DNA of 64,000 nt from an uncultured Candidatus Saccharibacteria bacterium. Its GTDB lineage: Bacteria; Patescibacteriota; Doudnabacteria; UBA920. The stretch covers positions 6,074-70,073 of the forward strand of contig CAZTCH010000001.1 in NCBI GenBank assembly GCA_964612745.1. The letters run 5' to 3'. Below the pieces are notes generated by a model. It saw only the letters and a program-made list of their open reading frames with translations, was not told the origin of the DNA and did no database searches. The translations under genes and the position numbers were made by a program. Of the stretch, positions 8,996-15,853 are shown piece after piece; position 1 is the stretch's first letter; every line of letters starts with the position of its first letter.

Positions 8996-10787
8996 TATTA
9001 GTGCTATACTTACAGAATGCGATGCTTTGAAGCCTAATTTTTCTTCCGATTTTATGAACGCAGAAACTCCTCCAAAACCCCCACAGCCACAGCTCTTTGG
9101 CGTGCTTAAATCCTATACTTGGTTACTCGTATCCCTTATTGTGTTGTCGTTACTATCCAACGGGTTTACGTTGTGGCTACCACGCATTATGTCTCATGGC
9201 ATAGATGGTTTTGTGCGTGGCGACTCTTTGCGGCTGGTGCTATGGCAGTTTGGTGTGGCCTCTGGGCTTATTTTCCTCTTTACGTATTTGCAAACATTTG
9301 TGCAGACGTATGCGTCAGAACGAGTCGCGCGAGATATGCGCATGCAAGTTTCGGACAAAATAGCGACACAAAGTTACGCGCAAGTGCAGGCAATGAGTCC
9401 CGCAAAGCTTTTGACGAACCTTACTTCTGATATAGACGCGATTAAGACATTTGTGGCACAAGCGATTGTGAATGTTGTCTCTTCGTTATTTTTGATCATT
9501 GGGGCGAGTGTGCTGTTGGTCGTGATTAATTGGAAGCTAGGGTTAGCGGTATTGCTTATTATCCCTATTATTGCCGGTACATTTTTTGTTATTCTAGGCA
9601 AGGTTCGTTCGTTGTTTTTGGAGTCTCGCCAAGTGATTGATTGGCTGAACAAAGTGATTAACGAAAGCATTATTGGTGCGGCGCTCATTCGTGTTTTGCA
9701 CTCTCAGTCGCGCGAGTATGAAAAATTTAGTGATGCAAATAGCAAAGCGCGAGATATTGGGATGGGGATTTTAAAGCTGTTTTCTGCGATGATCCCAATT
9801 ATTACGTTTACGGCTAATTTGGCAACATTGGTTATTTTGGTTTTGGGTGGGAAGTTTGTGATTGGTGGGTCGCTTTCTATTGGTGATTTCGCTTCATTCA
9901 ATAGCTACTTAGTTATTTTAATATTTCCCATTTTACTTATTGGGTTTATGAGTACGCTTATTGCGCAAGCGCAAGCATCGTACGGACGCATTGTCGAAGT
10001 GTTATCGTCTGCGGAAGTGGCGGACACCGGAACGGTTGTTGCAGCACTCGCGGGGAGAATTGATGTGCGTGAGGTGAATCTGTCGTTTGGGCAGAAAGAG
10101 GTGTTGCGTCATGTGTCGTTTGCTGTTGCAGCAGGGAGTCGGGTGGCGATTATTGGTCCGACTGCTGCAGGGAAGACACAGTTACTGCATGTGTTAATTG
10201 GTTTGGTGGCGCCTACTGCTGGCGAGGTATTATATGACGGACGCTCCATTCAGGAATATCAACGTGAAGGTTTGTATAAACAAATTGGATTGGTGTTTCA
10301 AGATAGTGCTATTTTTAACATTAGTCTACAAGAAAATATTGCGTTTAACACCGCAGTCTCAGAAGAGGCAATGCACAAAGCCATTGAAACTGCAGAGCTG
10401 ACTGACTTCATTGCTTCATTGCCGGAAGGCTTACAAACCGTAGTGTCTGAGCGGGGCAATAGTTTGTCGGGTGGGCAAAAGCAGCGCATTATGCTGGCTC
10501 GGGCACTGGCGGTAAACCCGAAGATTATTCTGCTGGACGACTTCACTGCTCGAGTGGATTTGGCAACAGAACAAAAGATCCTTGCGAACATTGCCCAAAA
10601 CTACCCTGGCGTAACGCTGGTCTCTGTAACGCAAAAAATTGCTTCGGTTGAGCAGTACGACCAAATAGTCGTACTTATGGAAGGGGAGGTACTCGCTACA
10701 GGTACTCATGCAGAGCTACTGGCGACGTCACCAGAGTACGTCCAAATATATAATTCGCAGCAAAGCACCAATACTCATGAACTATAA
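8988..10787 (+). CDS. ABC exporter, fused permease/ATPase subunit (heterodimeric multidrug-type)
   Basis: Six-TM N-terminal domain with Walker A GPTAAGKT, signature LSGGQKQR and Walker B ILLDD. Confidence 0.85.
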   Translation: MRSISAILTECDALKPNFSSDFMNAETPPKPPQPQLFGVLKSYTWLLVSLIVLSLLSNGFTLWLPRIMSHGIDGFVRGDSLRLVLWQFGVASGLIFLFTYLQTFVQTYASERVARDMRMQVSDKIATQSYAQVQAMSPAKLLTNLTSDIDAIKTFVAQAIVNVVSSLFLIIGASVLLVVINWKLGLAVLLIIPIIAGTFFVILGKVRSLFLESRQVIDWLNKVINESIIGAALIRVLHSQSREYEKFSDANSKARDIGMGILKLFSAMIPIITFTANLATLVILVLGGKFVIGGSLSIGDFASFNSYLVILIFPILLIGFMSTLIAQAQASYGRIVEVLSSAEVADTGTVVAALAGRIDVREVNLSFGQKEVLRHVSFAVAAGSRVAIIGPTAAGKTQLLHVLIGLVAPTAGEVLYDGRSIQEYQREGLYKQIGLVFQDSAIFNISLQENIAFNTAVSEEAMHKAIETAELTDFIASLPEGLQTVVSERGNSLSGGQKQRIMLARALAVNPKIILLDDFTARVDLATEQKILANIAQNYPGVTLVSVTQKIASVEQYDQIVVLMEGEVLATGTHAELLATSPEYVQIYNSQQSTNTHEL

Positions 10788-12577: not shown

Positions 12578-13192
12578 TTATGGGTTCGGGGCGGTTGTTG
12601 TTAGCGGCTGCGTGGAAGTATAAACTGGCGCGTGTTTGTGTTGGTTTGAGTTTGCACTCCAGCGCATAGCTGTGTAGCTGTGTTCTAGCGCATGTCCTAC
12701 CCAGCGTTCATCTATGAACTGTGGGAGCCCTGGGCGTGGGTTCCATAAAAGCATGTTCCCAAGAAAGCGCCTCCATTCACTTTCTGGAAGTATTGCGGGA
12801 AAGTATAAGTGATGTGACCGTCCACTGCGGTATACATCTACACTTTTGATATCCCACCGAGCGGGTAACCATTTTGCAAAGTTACTATCAGTGTCGTGAG
12901 ATTCCTGACAGTCTGTGAAAAGCATGTGACCACGCTGGTTTCCATGTTTATCAAATACCTGCGATTGTATTGCAAGTTCTTGACCGAGTTTGAGTGTTTC
13001 AATGTGGTACTGAACCAAGTGGGGAGTTAAGTCCTCAAATTTGATTGGTACAATGACACGAGTGTCATTTGTACTCGTTTGCGGTACGTAGAAGTATTTT
13101 GCCAAAAGCAATATGCTTCCACGTGGTATAAGGCCAAGGCGGCCTAACTTGAGAATTGATTGTATGGGATGTAAGTCCCAGTTTATTTCCAC
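12578..13192 (-). CDS. hypothetical protein (GTG start, SD AAGGAGGG 9 nt upstream)
   Basis: 204-aa ORF with a good SD. No recognisable family. Confidence 0.5.
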   Translation of the reverse strand: MEINWDLHPIQSILKLGRLGLIPRGSILLLAKYFYVPQTSTNDTRVIVPIKFEDLTPHLVQYHIETLKLGQELAIQSQVFDKHGNQRGHMLFTDCQESHDTDSNFAKWLPARWDIKSVDVYRSGRSHHLYFPAILPESEWRRFLGNMLLWNPRPGLPQFIDERWVGHALEHSYTAMRWSANSNQHKHAPVYTSTQPLTTTAPNP

Positions 13193-13439: not shown

Positions 13440-13520
13440 AGTAGTATTATACCGCATTGTGCCAGTGCATTGATTTTTTTGCCTTATTTTGTTAGTATAA
13501 GCAGGAATTGGGCAAGAGCA

Positions 13521-13556
13521 GAGAATAGAGAGTAGAGGTTAGAAAGAGCTTTTTAG
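13521..13556. repeat. copy of modular low-complexity intergenic repeat (inverted orientation)
   Basis: gagaatagagagtagaggttagaaagagctttttag matches blocks at 2412-2440 and 36960-37000 (CTCTACTCTCTATTCTC) and the AGCTTTTTAG block. Confidence 0.6.
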
Positions 13557-13623
13557 TTTTTCTGGCGTGAAGACTCTCTTGTCTTTCTCGCAACTAGCAA
13601 CTAGTCACTCGCAACTAATTCTG

Positions 13624-13699
13624 GCGCCATCATCTAATGGTTAGGATAGGTGGTTCTCATCCACCAAATCGGGGTTCGATTCCCCGTGGCGCTACCAAT
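13624..13699 (+). tRNA. tRNA-Glu (anticodon CUC), CCA encoded
   Basis: Manual fold: acceptor GGCGCCA/TGGCGCT, D-arm, anticodon stem GGTGG/CCACC with loop TTCTCAT, T-arm CGGGG-TTCGATT-CCCCG, then discriminator A and CCA. Confidence 0.75.
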
Positions 13700-13731
13700 A
13701 AAAATACACCAGCATGCTGGTGTATTTTTAT
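13699..13731. terminator. perfect palindromic hairpin terminator after tRNA-Glu
   Basis: aaaaatacaccagcatgctggtgtattttt. Confidence 0.6.
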
Positions 13732-13732
13732 T

Positions 13733-13930
13733 GGTAGAGAAAAGACACGGGGAATCGAAAAGAGCGGTCCCGCCACCAGCGGGACTGCGCTGCGACTAGT
13801 TGGAGCAGTGCAGAGCGGCGGGGTCGCGTTAGGCGTCATGCGATGCGCCCGAAGGAAGCAGAGCATAGCCGTGGGTGACTGATTCCCCGCATGTTCGCCG
13901 TAGCTTTGGCGAAGGAGTGTGGCGCTACCA
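13733..13930 (+). ncRNA. candidate structured non-coding RNA (GC-rich; SRP-RNA-like GAAGGAAGCAG motif at 13851-13861; ends pair)
   Basis: Lies between two strong terminators. The 5' CGGGGAATC (13757-13765) pairs with the 3' GATTCCCCG (13881-13889), and GGTAG pairs with CTACC. Local hairpins include GTCCCGC..GCGGGAC and GGCG..CGCC. The 3' end duplicates the tRNA-Glu 3' end (gattccccg...tggcgctacca) with a 30-nt insert. ORF-track ORFs here (13637..13882 and others) are judged spurious. Confidence 0.3.
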
Positions 13931-13972
13931 AACTAAAACAACACCGAACAATTGTTCGGTGTTTTAGTTTGC
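13930..13972 (+). terminator. long hairpin terminator (aaactaaaacaacaccgaacaa/ttgttcggtgttttagttt) followed by T-rich tail
   Basis: About 19-bp stem with a 3-nt bulge. Confidence 0.6.
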
Positions 13973-14004
13973 CCTGAGCTTGTCGAAGGGCTCCTGTAAT
14001 CGAC

Positions 14005-14040
14005 GATGGGCACCATGTGCTGCTGTAGATGGTGCCCATC
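14005..14040. repeat. GATGGGCACCAT hairpin repeat family, copy A
   Basis: GATGGGCACCAT-gtgctgctgt-AGATGGTGCCCATC. Other copies at 22635-22679, 42947-43045 and 50862-50914. Confidence 0.8.
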
Positions 14041-14090
14041 TTGCCACCAACTTACTTACCCCACCCCGTGTATTTTGTTATAATTGCTCT

Positions 14091-14579
14091 ATGCACATGT
14101 ATCTTATTGACGGTGTGTCCGGTGCCGGAAAAACAACAATTTGTGAAGAGTTAAATAAGCGCGGGTATAGAGCAGTGGAGGCTGACGAGGTATTAGCAGG
14201 ATTTATTGATCCCGCGACAGGATTGCCTACAGATGACCACTCATCCGAAAATTGGTATTGGAGCAAAGAAAAGTTTGAGAATATGGTCAAAGAAGCGGGT
14301 GAAGCTGATATTTTTGTTTGTGGTGGGGCGATGAATAAACCAGATTTTCTGAATCGATTCACTAAAGTCTTTACGCTACATCTTGATGATGAAACTTTGA
14401 GAGACAGATTGCTACACAGAACTACTAACGACTACGGTAAGAAGCCTGAGGAGCTGGATTTCCAACTCAGGGAGAATCAAAAAACTGTACAGTATTCTAA
14501 GGAGCGTGGTTCTATACTGATTGACGCTACTAAATCTGTCGATGAAGTTTTAACTCAAATAATAAAAAACCTTGTGTAG
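14091..14579 (+). CDS. P-loop NTPase, small nucleotide/antibiotic-kinase-like (AAA_33/CPT-like)
   Basis: Walker A GVSGAGKTT near the N-terminus. ATG at 14091 is 6 nt after TATAAT (14079-14084), a leaderless layout. The ORF-track 13980 start is upstream of the promoter. Confidence 0.65.
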   Translation: MHMYLIDGVSGAGKTTICEELNKRGYRAVEADEVLAGFIDPATGLPTDDHSSENWYWSKEKFENMVKEAGEADIFVCGGAMNKPDFLNRFTKVFTLHLDDETLRDRLLHRTTNDYGKKPEELDFQLRENQKTVQYSKERGSILIDATKSVDEVLTQIIKNLV

Positions 14580-15200: not shown

Positions 15201-15243
15201 CACAGTAAAAGTGGACAGTGGATAGTGGACAGAGAACAGTGCG

Positions 15244-15287
15244 CAGTCGTTTGAGGCCCTGAGGGGTCCTCAGGCCCTCGAAGGGTG
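15244..15287. repeat. hairpin repeat cagtcgtttgaggccctgaggggtcctcaggccctcgaagggtg (left copy flanking tRNA cluster)
   Basis: Internally palindromic (GAGGCCCTGAGG/CCTCAGGCCCTC). The inverted copy at 15802-15853 differs by a few bases. Confidence 0.7.
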
Positions 15288-15303
15288 GATAGTGGACAGA
15301 GGA

Positions 15304-15331
15304 AAAACCGTTGCGGGGCAGCGGTTTTTTT
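15304..15331 (+). terminator. hairpin plus T-run terminator after VOC gene
   Basis: aaaaaccgttgcggggcagcggttttttt. Confidence 0.55.
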
Positions 15332-15334
15332 GTA

Positions 15335-15363
15335 TTGACTTGATGGGATAAAGACGGTATCAT
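15335..15363 (+). promoter_or_regulatory. sigma70-like promoter for tRNA cluster (-35 TTGACT, 17-nt spacer, -10 TATCAT)
   Basis: Consensus hexamers sit 12 nt upstream of the first tRNA. Confidence 0.5.
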
Positions 15364-15375
15364 GCTTCAAACATC

Positions 15376-15447
15376 GGTCCCTTAACTTAATGGTAGAGTG
15401 CTGAGCTCCACGTTCAGAGGTTGTAGGTTCGAATCCTACAGGGGCCA
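15376..15447 (+). tRNA. tRNA-Trp-like (anticodon CCA), atypical C37 and A73
   Basis: Acceptor GGTCCCT/AGGGGCC, D-stem ACTT/GAGT, anticodon stem CTGAG/TTCAG with loop CTCCACG, T-arm GTAGG-TTCGAAT-CCTAC. No encoded CCA. Confidence 0.6.
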
Positions 15448-15571
15448 TGAGTTGTAGCTCAATGGTAGAGCGCTGCTACTGAATAGGTAGGCTAAGACAC
15501 ATCAATTGAAGAAATTATGTGTATAGCGATTAAAAATCCAGAGGTTGTGGGTTCGAATCCCATCAGCTCAG
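15448..15571 (+). tRNA. interrupted tRNA-like gene (124 nt): U1-A72 acceptor, canonical D-arm and T-arm, ~50-nt insertion where the anticodon arm should be
   Basis: 5' TGAGTTG-TA-GCTC-AATGGTA-GAGC and 3' AGGTT-GTGGG-TTCGAAT-CCCAT-CAGCTCA-G pair perfectly as an acceptor stem. No 5-7-5 anticodon arm could be built, and the insert contains an ACACAT/ATGTGT hairpin. Confidence 0.4.
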
Positions 15572-15573
15572 TT

Positions 15574-15646
15574 GCTAGGGTAGCTCAACGGCAGAGCGTT
15601 CGCTTTTATAGCGGAAGGATTGCGGGTTCGAGTCCCGTCCCTAGCG
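15574..15646 (+). tRNA. tRNA with UUA anticodon (ochre-suppressor-like tRNA-Sup(TTA)), 73 nt
   Basis: Perfect 7-bp acceptor GCTAGGG/CCCTAGC, D-arm GCTC-AACGGCA-GAGC, anticodon stem TTCGC/GCGGA with loop TTTTATA (positions 34-36 = TTA), T-arm GCGGG-TTCGAGT-CCCGT, discriminator G. Confidence 0.55.
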
Positions 15647-15801
15647 TTGTCCACAGGAGGACAGATACATGTGCGGTTTGGTGCCGCTTAGTGCGCCAAA
15701 TATTTTGGATCTTAGATCCATTCCGCACTGGCGAGCTTCGTGCCCGCCAACAGAAACGAAAAACAACATGTAATGGTACATGTTGTTTTGTTTTTTCTAT
15801 T

Positions 15802-15853
15802 CACCCTTCGAGGGTCTGAGGACTTCTCAGGGCCTCGAACGACTGTCCACTAT
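15802..15853. repeat. hairpin repeat, right (inverted) copy flanking tRNA cluster
   Basis: cacccttcgagggtctgaggacttctcagggcctcgaacgactgtccactat is the reverse complement of the 15244-15287 family. Confidence 0.7.

Follow-up and report, generated by a model that had tools for sequence, protein, structure and literature searches.

A recurrent family of small, protein-less structured elements downstream of tRNA genes in bacteria of the Candidate Phyla Radiation

In this study we analyzed a 64-kb segment of a bacterial chromosome with a GC content of about 46% (contig CAZTCH010000001.1, from an uncultured Candidatus Saccharibacteria bacterium). The whole of this segment is called the window below, and coordinates are window positions unless another locus is named. 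We found that 13699-13931 of the window (233 bp; equivalently 13686-13918) is an insertion behind the gene of tRNA-Glu(CUC), and that this segment belongs to a family of small structured elements, free of protein genes, that recurs downstream of tRNA genes in bacteria of the Candidate Phyla Radiation (CPR). The two flanks of the element, Xbar and X2, match the local tRNA, and one of its helices, P3, is kept by compensatory substitutions. No model in Rfam 15 matches the family and no description of it was found in the papers searched; the family is apparently undescribed.

An insertion behind tRNA-Glu(CUC)

The tRNA gene, the inserted module and the terminators consist of the following parts.

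13623-13697, + strand: tRNA-Glu, anticodon CUC, CCA encoded (ARAGORN; Rfam tRNA, 59 bits)
13675-13698, + strand: X1, the tRNA 3' end (T-loop, T-stem 3' strand, acceptor 3' strand, CCA and 1 further nt; repeats D1, D7 and I2)
13692-13737, no strand: P0, or terminator 1, a perfect palindrome of 23 + 23 nt flanked by A and T runs (inverted repeat I1, 100% complementary, 0-nt spacer)
13732-13759, + strand: Xbar, the antisense copy of the tRNA 3' end, made of TGGTAG, the 8-nt spacer AGAAAAGA and CACGGGGAATCGAA (I2, 14/14 complementary to 13675-88)
13757-13764, + strand: junction motif GAAAAGAG, family consensus GAAA(A)G
13766-13811, + strand: P2 region of two hairpins (13766-13786 and 13787-13811; RNAfold), variable within the family in alignment A2
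13817-13826, + strand: conserved GGCGGGGTCG, of which GGTCG is the 5' strand of the P3 base (common to locus L014 and all family members)
13822-13880, + strand: P3, a rod-like helix GGUCG...UGACU with purine-rich internal loops
13873-13887, + strand: conserved 3' core motif GGGTGACTGATTCCC, family consensus GGGUGACCGAAUCCC (shared with L014 and the family loci)
13881-13889, + strand: X2 proximal half GATTCCCCG (D7, I12), which pairs with 13748-13757 as the closing helix P1 in the minimum-free-energy fold
13890-13918, + strand: optional 29-nt hairpin at the T-stem/acceptor boundary of X2, seen in the sequence, with the stem TTCGCC/GGCGAA
13919-13931, + strand: X2 distal half GTGGCGCTACCAA, the ancestral end of the tRNA gene (D1), followed by the ancestral trailer
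13929-13971, no strand: terminator 2, homologous to the terminator right after tRNA-Glu in relatives that are free of the insertion

X1 is the source sequence of the two copies located downstream of it. That is, GATTCCCCG is found at 13678-86 and again at 13881-89, and the 13-mer GTGGCGCTACCAA, whose repetition has a chance expectation of 0.01 in the window, is found at 13686-98 and again at 13919-31. In the opposite sense, tRNA positions 13675-88 recur exactly at 13746-59, as the 14-nt reverse complement CACGGGGAATCGAA (chance expectation 0.00). All three repeats far exceed what chance would give. The arms of terminator 1 contain CTACCA and TGGTAG, and thus the tRNA's own CTACCA. An earlier interpretation of the bare letters (the sequence-only reading) had placed here a tRNA-Glu(CUC) with a palindromic terminator and a GC-rich region ending in a second terminator. 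ARAGORN, Rfam and an inverted-repeat search confirmed the tRNA and both terminators, and the GC content was 0.60-0.68 over 13750-13900 against about 0.46 window-wide. It had also pointed out a split repeat of the tRNA 3' end and the complement of this end at the 5' side of the region. Both parts of the repeat are present, although the hairpin that separates them is 29 nt and not 30 nt long, and the complement turned out to be longer than had been noticed, covering the 14 nt given above. Open reading frames (ORFs) of 81, 69 and 67 amino acids overlap the region, and they also overlap the tRNA and one another. A promoter-like site was not found between terminator 1 and the module.

The same site is empty in three related Saccharibacteria loci (L104, L105 and L106), in which tRNA-Glu is followed by one terminator and by the orthologue of the kinase gene that adjoins the element in the window. 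The kinase of the window shows 71-73% identity to genes of Candidatus Saccharibacteria metagenome-assembled genomes (MAGs). The trailer of these relatives, ACCA-CTAACAACC...TTTTTAGTTTGG, is also conserved in L002 and L011, and after its second tRNA end the window has a sequence, ACCA-AACTAAAACAAC...TTTTAGTTTG, that is recognisably the same. An alignment with L104, L105, L002 and L011 gave ACCA..CTAA.AACAAC...TTTTAGTTTG in common. Since terminator 2 matches the ancestral trailer, copy 2 and terminator 2 represent the ancestral gene end, and about 233 bp were inserted before them. The inserted part consists of a new tRNA 3' end, P0, Xbar and the core.

At the same tRNA-Glu 3' end, relatives carry other insertions with small ORFs that are unrelated to the module (L002 3244-3830, L011 up to 2915, L004 3494-4000 and L009 1222-3000). 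The right junction in L002 and L011 is a bare CTACCA, after which the ancestral trailer begins. The presence of these unrelated insertions indicates that the site is an integration hot spot.

Members of the family

In a scan of genomes, a Saccharibacteria MAG (L014) was found to have GGCGGGGTCG...GGGTGACCGAATCCC in common with the window, beside its own tRNA-Glu(CUC). A single scan of metagenomes with the pattern GGCGGGGTCG-N20-50-GGGTGACYGAWTCCC yielded 13 loci, of which 12 are real; the remaining one, L089, is a chance match within GC-rich coding DNA. A looser local search revealed a second module on contig L096, behind a second tRNA-Met. Outside the window, the family therefore comprises 14 copies, of which 13 are distinct, and these are distributed over 13 contigs of CPR metagenomes and MAGs (Saccharibacteria and Parcubacteria). 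With that of the window, the total is 15 copies and 14 distinct sequences.

Several features of the loci were not selected by the search pattern. The 12 loci share a 5' motif, GG(G)AUUCGAAA(A)G or GGGAUGAGAAAG, 40-80 nt upstream, and the junction GAAA(A)G is conserved in alignment A2 though it lies outside the pattern. At the loci with intact flanks, a tRNA gene is present 60-110 nt upstream on the same strand. Right after GAAUCCC comes a copy of the 3' end of this upstream tRNA, which completes the T-stem 3' strand and continues with the acceptor 3' strand, the discriminator and usually CCA. The identity of this 3' tail to the upstream tRNA extends over 15-21 nt, and over a longer stretch in L092 and L095. 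The insert is bounded by a direct repeat of the tRNA 3' end, with the upstream tRNA intact, in the window and at the 8 other loci that have an adjacent tRNA.

Seven different tRNA genes are involved: Ser-UGA (L091, L093 and the decayed L090), Ser-GCU (L092 and L095), two Met (in L096 and L100), Arg-UCG (L097), Gly-UCC (L101) and Glu-CUC (the window and L014) are the neighboring tRNAs. All copies whose flanks are intact follow a tRNA gene on its own strand; of the 15 copies, 14 do so directly. The exception is L014 (1083-1240), where the module is located upstream of an intact tRNA-Glu(CUC), behind what seems to be a degenerate second promoter with the 5' part of the same tRNA.

A covariance model, R1, was built from a seed of 12 members. 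It gave scores of 46.5 bits to the second module of L096 and 43.1 bits to L014, neither of which belongs to the seed, and no other match in the window or in 17 control loci. L009, in which tRNA-Glu(CUC) is followed by a second terminator-bounded segment of similar appearance by eye, had no covariance-model match and for this reason was not counted as a member. The gene next to the module of L100 is closest to Candidatus Buchananbacteria, which indicates that the family spans at least Saccharibacteria and Parcubacteria.

The flanks match the neighboring tRNA

Xbar is antisense, by Watson-Crick pairing, to the final 10-23 nt of the neighboring tRNA. When nine tRNAs were ranked by the energy of their duplex with Xbar at each of nine loci, the cognate tRNA ranked 1, 1, 3, 1, 1, 2, 3, 2 and 1, that is, first in 5 loci and second or third in 4 (rank sum <=15: p ~1e-5). 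Xbar reads AAUCGAA where the T-loop is UUCGAUU (in the window, L098 and L101), and it has A opposite U at the G.U positions of the tRNA. For these reasons we rejected the idea that Xbar arose by direct copying of the 5' strands of the tRNA itself and later decayed.

The fit of Xbar is better to X1 than to X2 in the window (14 vs 10 bp) and in L101, so that X1, P0 and Xbar form one long interrupted palindrome. The overall order of the parts is direct, inverted, core, direct. This order might be produced by a local replication accident, in which the template would be switched between the quasi-palindrome of the terminator and that of the T-arm GGTTCGAATCC, as in a tandem inversion duplication, to give X1-P0-rc(X)-...-X2 with no element being involved. 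A direct-inverted-direct order with hairpins at both junctions agrees with this, and Xbar is a true reverse complement with the closer resemblance to X1 just described. However, a homologous core of about 100 nt is shared across unrelated tRNAs and different phyla. This largely refutes such an accident, and we regard it as very improbable. Template switching may be the source, or the means of upkeep, of the complementarity between the flanks.

Xbar and X2 are inverted repeats of 10-23 nt, as the terminal repeats of miniature inverted-repeat transposable elements (MITEs) would be, but they are derived from the target and are not element-specific. The module resembles MITEs and other non-autonomous miniature elements, including cis-mobilisable ones flanked by att sites, in being small, non-coding and bounded by inverted repeats, in its patchy distribution among relatives, and in the presence of paralogous copies on one contig. 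It differs from them in that the inverted repeats copy the local target tRNA and that no parent element or transposase is known. MITEs are recognized by many near-identical copies together with a transposase; here we counted one copy in the 64-kb window and two on L096.

Two further repeats were observed in L092. The direct repeat after its first module runs 38 nt past CCA, and about 160 nt downstream of the module, in module orientation, there is a different structured segment, at the end of which the tRNA-Ser acceptor strand, TCCCTCTCCGCCA, recurs for the third time.

Structure of the module and covariation of P3

The members have a common order of parts, namely hairpin P0, Xbar, GAAA(A)G, the variable P2 hairpins, GGCGGGGUCG...GGGUGACCGAAUCCC closing the P3 rod, and X2. 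A hairpin is present at the P0 position in most members, with or without a U tract. Folding the members singly gave one shared plan of P1, a purine junction, P2, GG and P3. P1 is the closing helix, in which the antisense Xbar on the 5' side pairs with the sense X2 on the 3' side. P2 is variable and consists of one to three hairpins, which are closed by GCC/GGC in one subfamily. P3 has the base GGUCG/UGACC, a purine-rich internal loop and a variable distal hairpin. An extra hairpin occurs exactly at the T-stem/acceptor boundary in some members, on the X2 side in the window, in module 1 of L096 and in L097, and on the Xbar side in L100 and L098.

The rod fold of P3 was obtained in 14/14 members, and the + strand was the more stable one in 14/14 P3 arms. 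For the modules as a whole, the tRNA strand folded more stably than its complement in 13/13 cases. In the window, the fold of 13740-13935 was moderately better than those of shuffled sequences, with z = -2.8 for the + strand and z = -3.4 for the - strand. RNAalifold, when applied to the raw MAFFT alignment, recovered the P3 base alone, because the variable arms misalign, and we therefore folded the members singly and counted pairs on a gap-poor subset.

In the six members with a short P3, 97.8% of the cells were paired, and 9 of the 15 pairs showed compensatory double changes. None of 500 shuffles was as good, and sliding the partner strand left at most 48% paired. The non-Watson-Crick pairs in P3 were all G.U. 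In the second module of L096, the otherwise fixed GGG of GGGUGACC is replaced, with the matching change on the opposite strand. The P3 arms of the window and of L092 agree in their irregular shape and differ in nearly all of their pairs.

Comparison with known RNAs

The sequence-only reading had considered a 4.5S-like (ffs) or 6S-like small RNA, and had noted an 11-mer that resembles domain IV of the signal recognition particle (SRP) RNA. The 11-mer, GAAGGAAGCAG, does exist and occurs once, at 13851-61. Taken alone, this is only weakly unusual, as 4 of 100 shuffles contained it at least once. The likeness to domain IV consists of this 11-nt identity and of a GA-rich hairpin with a small loop. 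However, the 11-mer lies in the variable distal part of P3, the 5' side of the would-be symmetric loop is missing, and the arm varies: the homologous arm of L092, the closest homologue, has the same shape with another sequence, and further members are without the 11-mer. We searched Rfam 15 covariance models at the gathering threshold on the whole window, at E<=10 on 13500-14100 and at E<=0.1 on 11 homologous loci. SRP RNA had no match at the gathering threshold in the whole window, no family covered the module at the 11 loci, and in 13500-14100 the tRNA was the only real match, even at E<=10. The other matches at that level were miRNA-type hairpin models on the palindrome of terminator 1, which are meaningless, and a tmRNA_permuted match (12.8 bits, E = 2.4) that falls within the T arm of the tRNA. 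Models of SRP RNA, 6S RNA, transfer-messenger RNA (tmRNA) and RNase P RNA thus gave no match to the region. These RNAs are ruled out by the covariance-model searches, and the chance that the module is one of them or something like them is negligible.

Self-cleaving ribozymes (hepatitis delta virus (HDV)-like/theta, hammerhead, twister, hatchet and pistol) had no Rfam matches in the region or in the homologues. On visual inspection, the junction strands (GAAA(A)G / GG / none) could not be matched to the core of hammerhead ribozymes, and the anatomy fits none of hammerhead, HDV, T-box, group I intron, IS110 bridge RNA and TnpB omega-RNA. Theta ribozymes, which are HDV-like, are small structured RNAs next to phage tRNAs (PMC10879173). 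The module is likewise a small structured element right beside tRNA genes, but it has no HDV-like double pseudoknot and no Rfam ribozyme match, is absent from the viral contigs scanned, is preceded by a hairpin and has the copied tRNA 3' end as its last part.

The closing helix can also be compared with tRNA-like minihelix RNAs such as the tRNA-like domain of tmRNA, mascRNA-type ends and YrlA. As in those RNAs, it corresponds to an acceptor stem plus T stem with a discriminator and CCA, which makes processing by tRNA enzymes plausible. In contrast to them, the module has its core in place of the T-loop, CCA is paired in several members, and no match to tmRNA, mascRNA or any other Rfam model covers the module.

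Signs of mobility and neighboring genes

The two modules of L096 share P2 (23/24) and differ in their P3 arms, and each pair of flanks matches its own tRNA-Met. L094 and L100 have closely similar cores with different tRNA tails. The P3 of the window resembles that of L092, which lies behind tRNA-Ser, and not that of L014, which lies beside a tRNA-Glu. L095 consists of two identical tandem units, and L090 is a decaying copy.

One explanation of the module is a small RNA that benefits the host and is carried in a tRNA-like minihelix. In this explanation Xbar and X2 would mimic the stacked acceptor and T stems with a CCA end, RNase P, 3' trimming and the CCA enzyme could excise the RNA from the tRNA transcript, and the three-way-junction core would serve, for example, in protein binding, as a decoy, or in the control of tRNA maturation. 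It agrees with the constant position directly behind the tRNA on the tRNA strand, with the terminator-free array of tRNA, module, module and tRNA in L095, and with the discriminator base and CCA at the end of the closing helix. The optional hairpins sit exactly at the acceptor/T-stem boundary, which is the branch point of the tRNA body, and the G.A-rich internal loops and GNRA-like loops of P3 are typical of RNA. However, the distribution is patchy among close relatives (L104, L105, L106, L002, L004 and L009 are without the module at the same tRNA), similar cores occur behind different tRNAs and twice on one contig, the L090 locus has decayed, and U-tract terminators stand upstream of the module in about half of the loci. 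Taken together, we consider a host RNA of this kind somewhat unlikely.

The modules are neighbored by unrelated housekeeping genes that have no gene family in common. Pfam scans of 1-38 kb of the window and of 11 other loci found no integrase or other recombinase, transposase or reverse transcriptase near any member. In the window the scans showed housekeeping genes for ABC transporters, ScpA/ScpB, AspRS, TruB, Lgt and a penicillin-binding protein. A divergent ORF that resembles archaeo-eukaryotic primases (12578-13192, - strand; PF24387, E = 3e-26) lies directly upstream of tRNA-Glu, and no such ORF is found beside the other modules. In L098, an HTH_3 and Peptidase_M78 pair (9567-10407, - strand), which is ImmR/ImmA-like, is located just upstream of a module without a recognisable tRNA ahead of it; the pair possibly marks where a larger mobile element ends. 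The family pattern was also run three times over 2.9 million viral contigs, which gave 0, 2 and 0 matches and no module. The two matches, L107 and L108, were chance occurrences within GC-rich coding DNA. A BLAST search with the window copy found no match in phage and plasmid collections.

These data bear on the question of whether the module is an ordinary integrase scar in the T-loop/3' end of a tRNA gene, made of attL, attR and the remains of attP arms, with its structure being incidental. At the T-loop/3'-end tRNA sites of islands and prophages that use tyrosine integrases, the tRNA 3' end likewise forms a direct repeat around the insert, the tRNA stays intact, and the same tRNA end is a hot spot in relatives. 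The direct repeat of the module spans T-loop to CCA, as at the T-loop-type tRNA integration sites that Williams reportedly described in 2002; the tRNA-Glu 3' end has received other insertions in L002, L004, L009 and L011, and the ImmR/ImmA-like pair of L098 is also in line with such a scar. The module differs from these sites, however, in having an insert of 100-230 bp with no integrase or other protein gene, an extra antisense copy of the tRNA end and a folded core kept by compensatory changes. A complete unit of 100-230 nt recurs in 14 places without an integrase, compensatory changes such as those of P3 are not required of double-stranded arm sites that bind proteins, and the antisense copy tracks each tRNA. 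In addition, there was no match in the viral contigs, nor for the window copy in the phage and plasmid collections. We find such a scar improbable. The sequence-only reading had offered a tRNA-derived RNA, an att-type scar, or both; it was right in that the insertion duplicates the tRNA 3' end, but the segment is one copy of a conserved family and no random scar.

Another possibility is a recombination site of folded single-stranded DNA, of the type of integron attC or CTX-phage attP(+), in which the annealed Xbar and X2 would rebuild a double-stranded tRNA 3' end, and a tyrosine recombinase of the host, or one supplied in trans, would exchange it with the tRNA gene. The module resembles these sites in its imperfect inverted repeats around a variable center whose structure is conserved more than its sequence, in strand-specific folding, and in the tandem array of L095. 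The folded strand is the G-rich strand, which is the lagging-strand template. CTX-type integration leaves an inverted site, a spacer, a direct site and the chromosomal flank, in that order, and the order of the module is the same. In contrast, the inner ends of the module are GGAUUCG / CGAAUCC and not the R''/L''...L'/R' boxes of attC (RYYYAAC / GTTRRRY), and there is no integron, IntI or Xer-type integrase in the vicinity. The flanks equal the tRNA 3' end, which is not the case in attC and attP(+), the three-way junction with conserved unpaired purines (GAAA) and the G.U pairs are more RNA-like, and 100-230 nt is very small for a replicon or circle. A site of this type is in our opinion doubtful.

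Other features of the window

Between terminator 2 and the kinase gene, a perfect 12-bp hairpin (GATGGGCACCAT / ATGGTGCCCATC) is present at 14005-14040, and CCCCGTGTATTTT (14064-76) is 92% complementary to 13740-52. Farther downstream, a cluster of three tRNAs at 15238-15851 is located between inverted repeats of 55 nt with 87% complementarity (15238-92 / 15797-851), with short direct repeats, GTGGATAGTGGACAGAG, in addition. This cluster looks like a cassette bounded by terminal inverted repeats. A tRNA-Trp-like gene at 15448-15571 scored 49 bits with Rfam and was not called by ARAGORN. Its anticodon arm comprises 63 nt against 11 in the model; the inserted 52 nt or so are too few for a group I intron. 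The tRNA at 15573-15647 has the anticodon UUA (loop UUUUAUA) and would read the stop codon UAA; the long ORFs of the window read normally with table 11.

Discussion

Our preferred explanation is that the module is a non-autonomous mobile structured element that targets tRNA 3' ends, and that its folded + strand, as RNA or as single-stranded DNA, is recognized by a propagation machinery. We put the probability of this at roughly 45%. Because the element duplicates the tRNA 3' end, the tRNA gene would stay intact on insertion. In the + strand, either as an RNA co-transcribed with the tRNA or as single-stranded DNA, Xbar would pair with X to form a closing helix resembling the acceptor and T stem, and the folded strand might be used by a putative machinery acting in trans. 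With each move to a different tRNA gene, the new target would serve as the template from which the flanks are made again.

Several points weigh against such a mobile element. No mobilizing enzyme or mechanism was identified at the loci scanned, and a mobile element would have to re-template both its antisense and its sense flank. Neither blastn nor the covariance model found a second copy within the 64-kb window. The copies included no near-identical pair at different sites, and hence no sign of recent transposition. About half of the loci, that of the window among them, have a U-tract terminator in the interval from tRNA to module, so that an RNA of the + strand would need read-through. The strand asymmetry of folding may have been inflated by the tRNA strand's excess of G over C. 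The search pattern, in turn, partly forced the conservation of GGCGGGGTCG and GGGTGACYGAWTCCC. Finally, the family rests on 15 copies, 14 of them distinct.

A bolder form of the mobile element can also be imagined, namely a protein-less mobile RNA. Here Xbar would guide the RNA to a chosen tRNA 3' end, the CCA-ended sense tail would mimic a tRNA, and an RNA intermediate would give rise to further copies of the element behind other tRNA genes, with the flanks being re-templated at each target. The copying might proceed by reverse transcription with template switching at CCA ends, or by a ribozyme-like reaction. We consider this form unlikely. If it were true, the module would be a programmable, tRNA-homing, structured RNA parasite of CPR bacteria.

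The combination of a conserved three-way-junction core, target-matched antisense and sense flanks, and the absence of any protein is without counterpart among the systems compared here. Since, in addition, Rfam 15 has no match and no published description was found, we regard the module as a new kind of element. On the practical side, elements of this type give rise to spurious ORF calls and to 'island' calls on tRNA fragments in CPR genomes, and the covariance model R1 offers a means of annotating them. If the family is real, bacteria of the Candidate Phyla Radiation harbor a novel type of tRNA-associated genetic element, with a folded core of about 100 nt and no enzyme gene of its own. The study of this element could reveal a new targeting of tRNA genes that is guided by RNA or single-stranded DNA, a new class of tRNA-scaffolded small RNA, or a new mechanism by which target-matched flanks are made.

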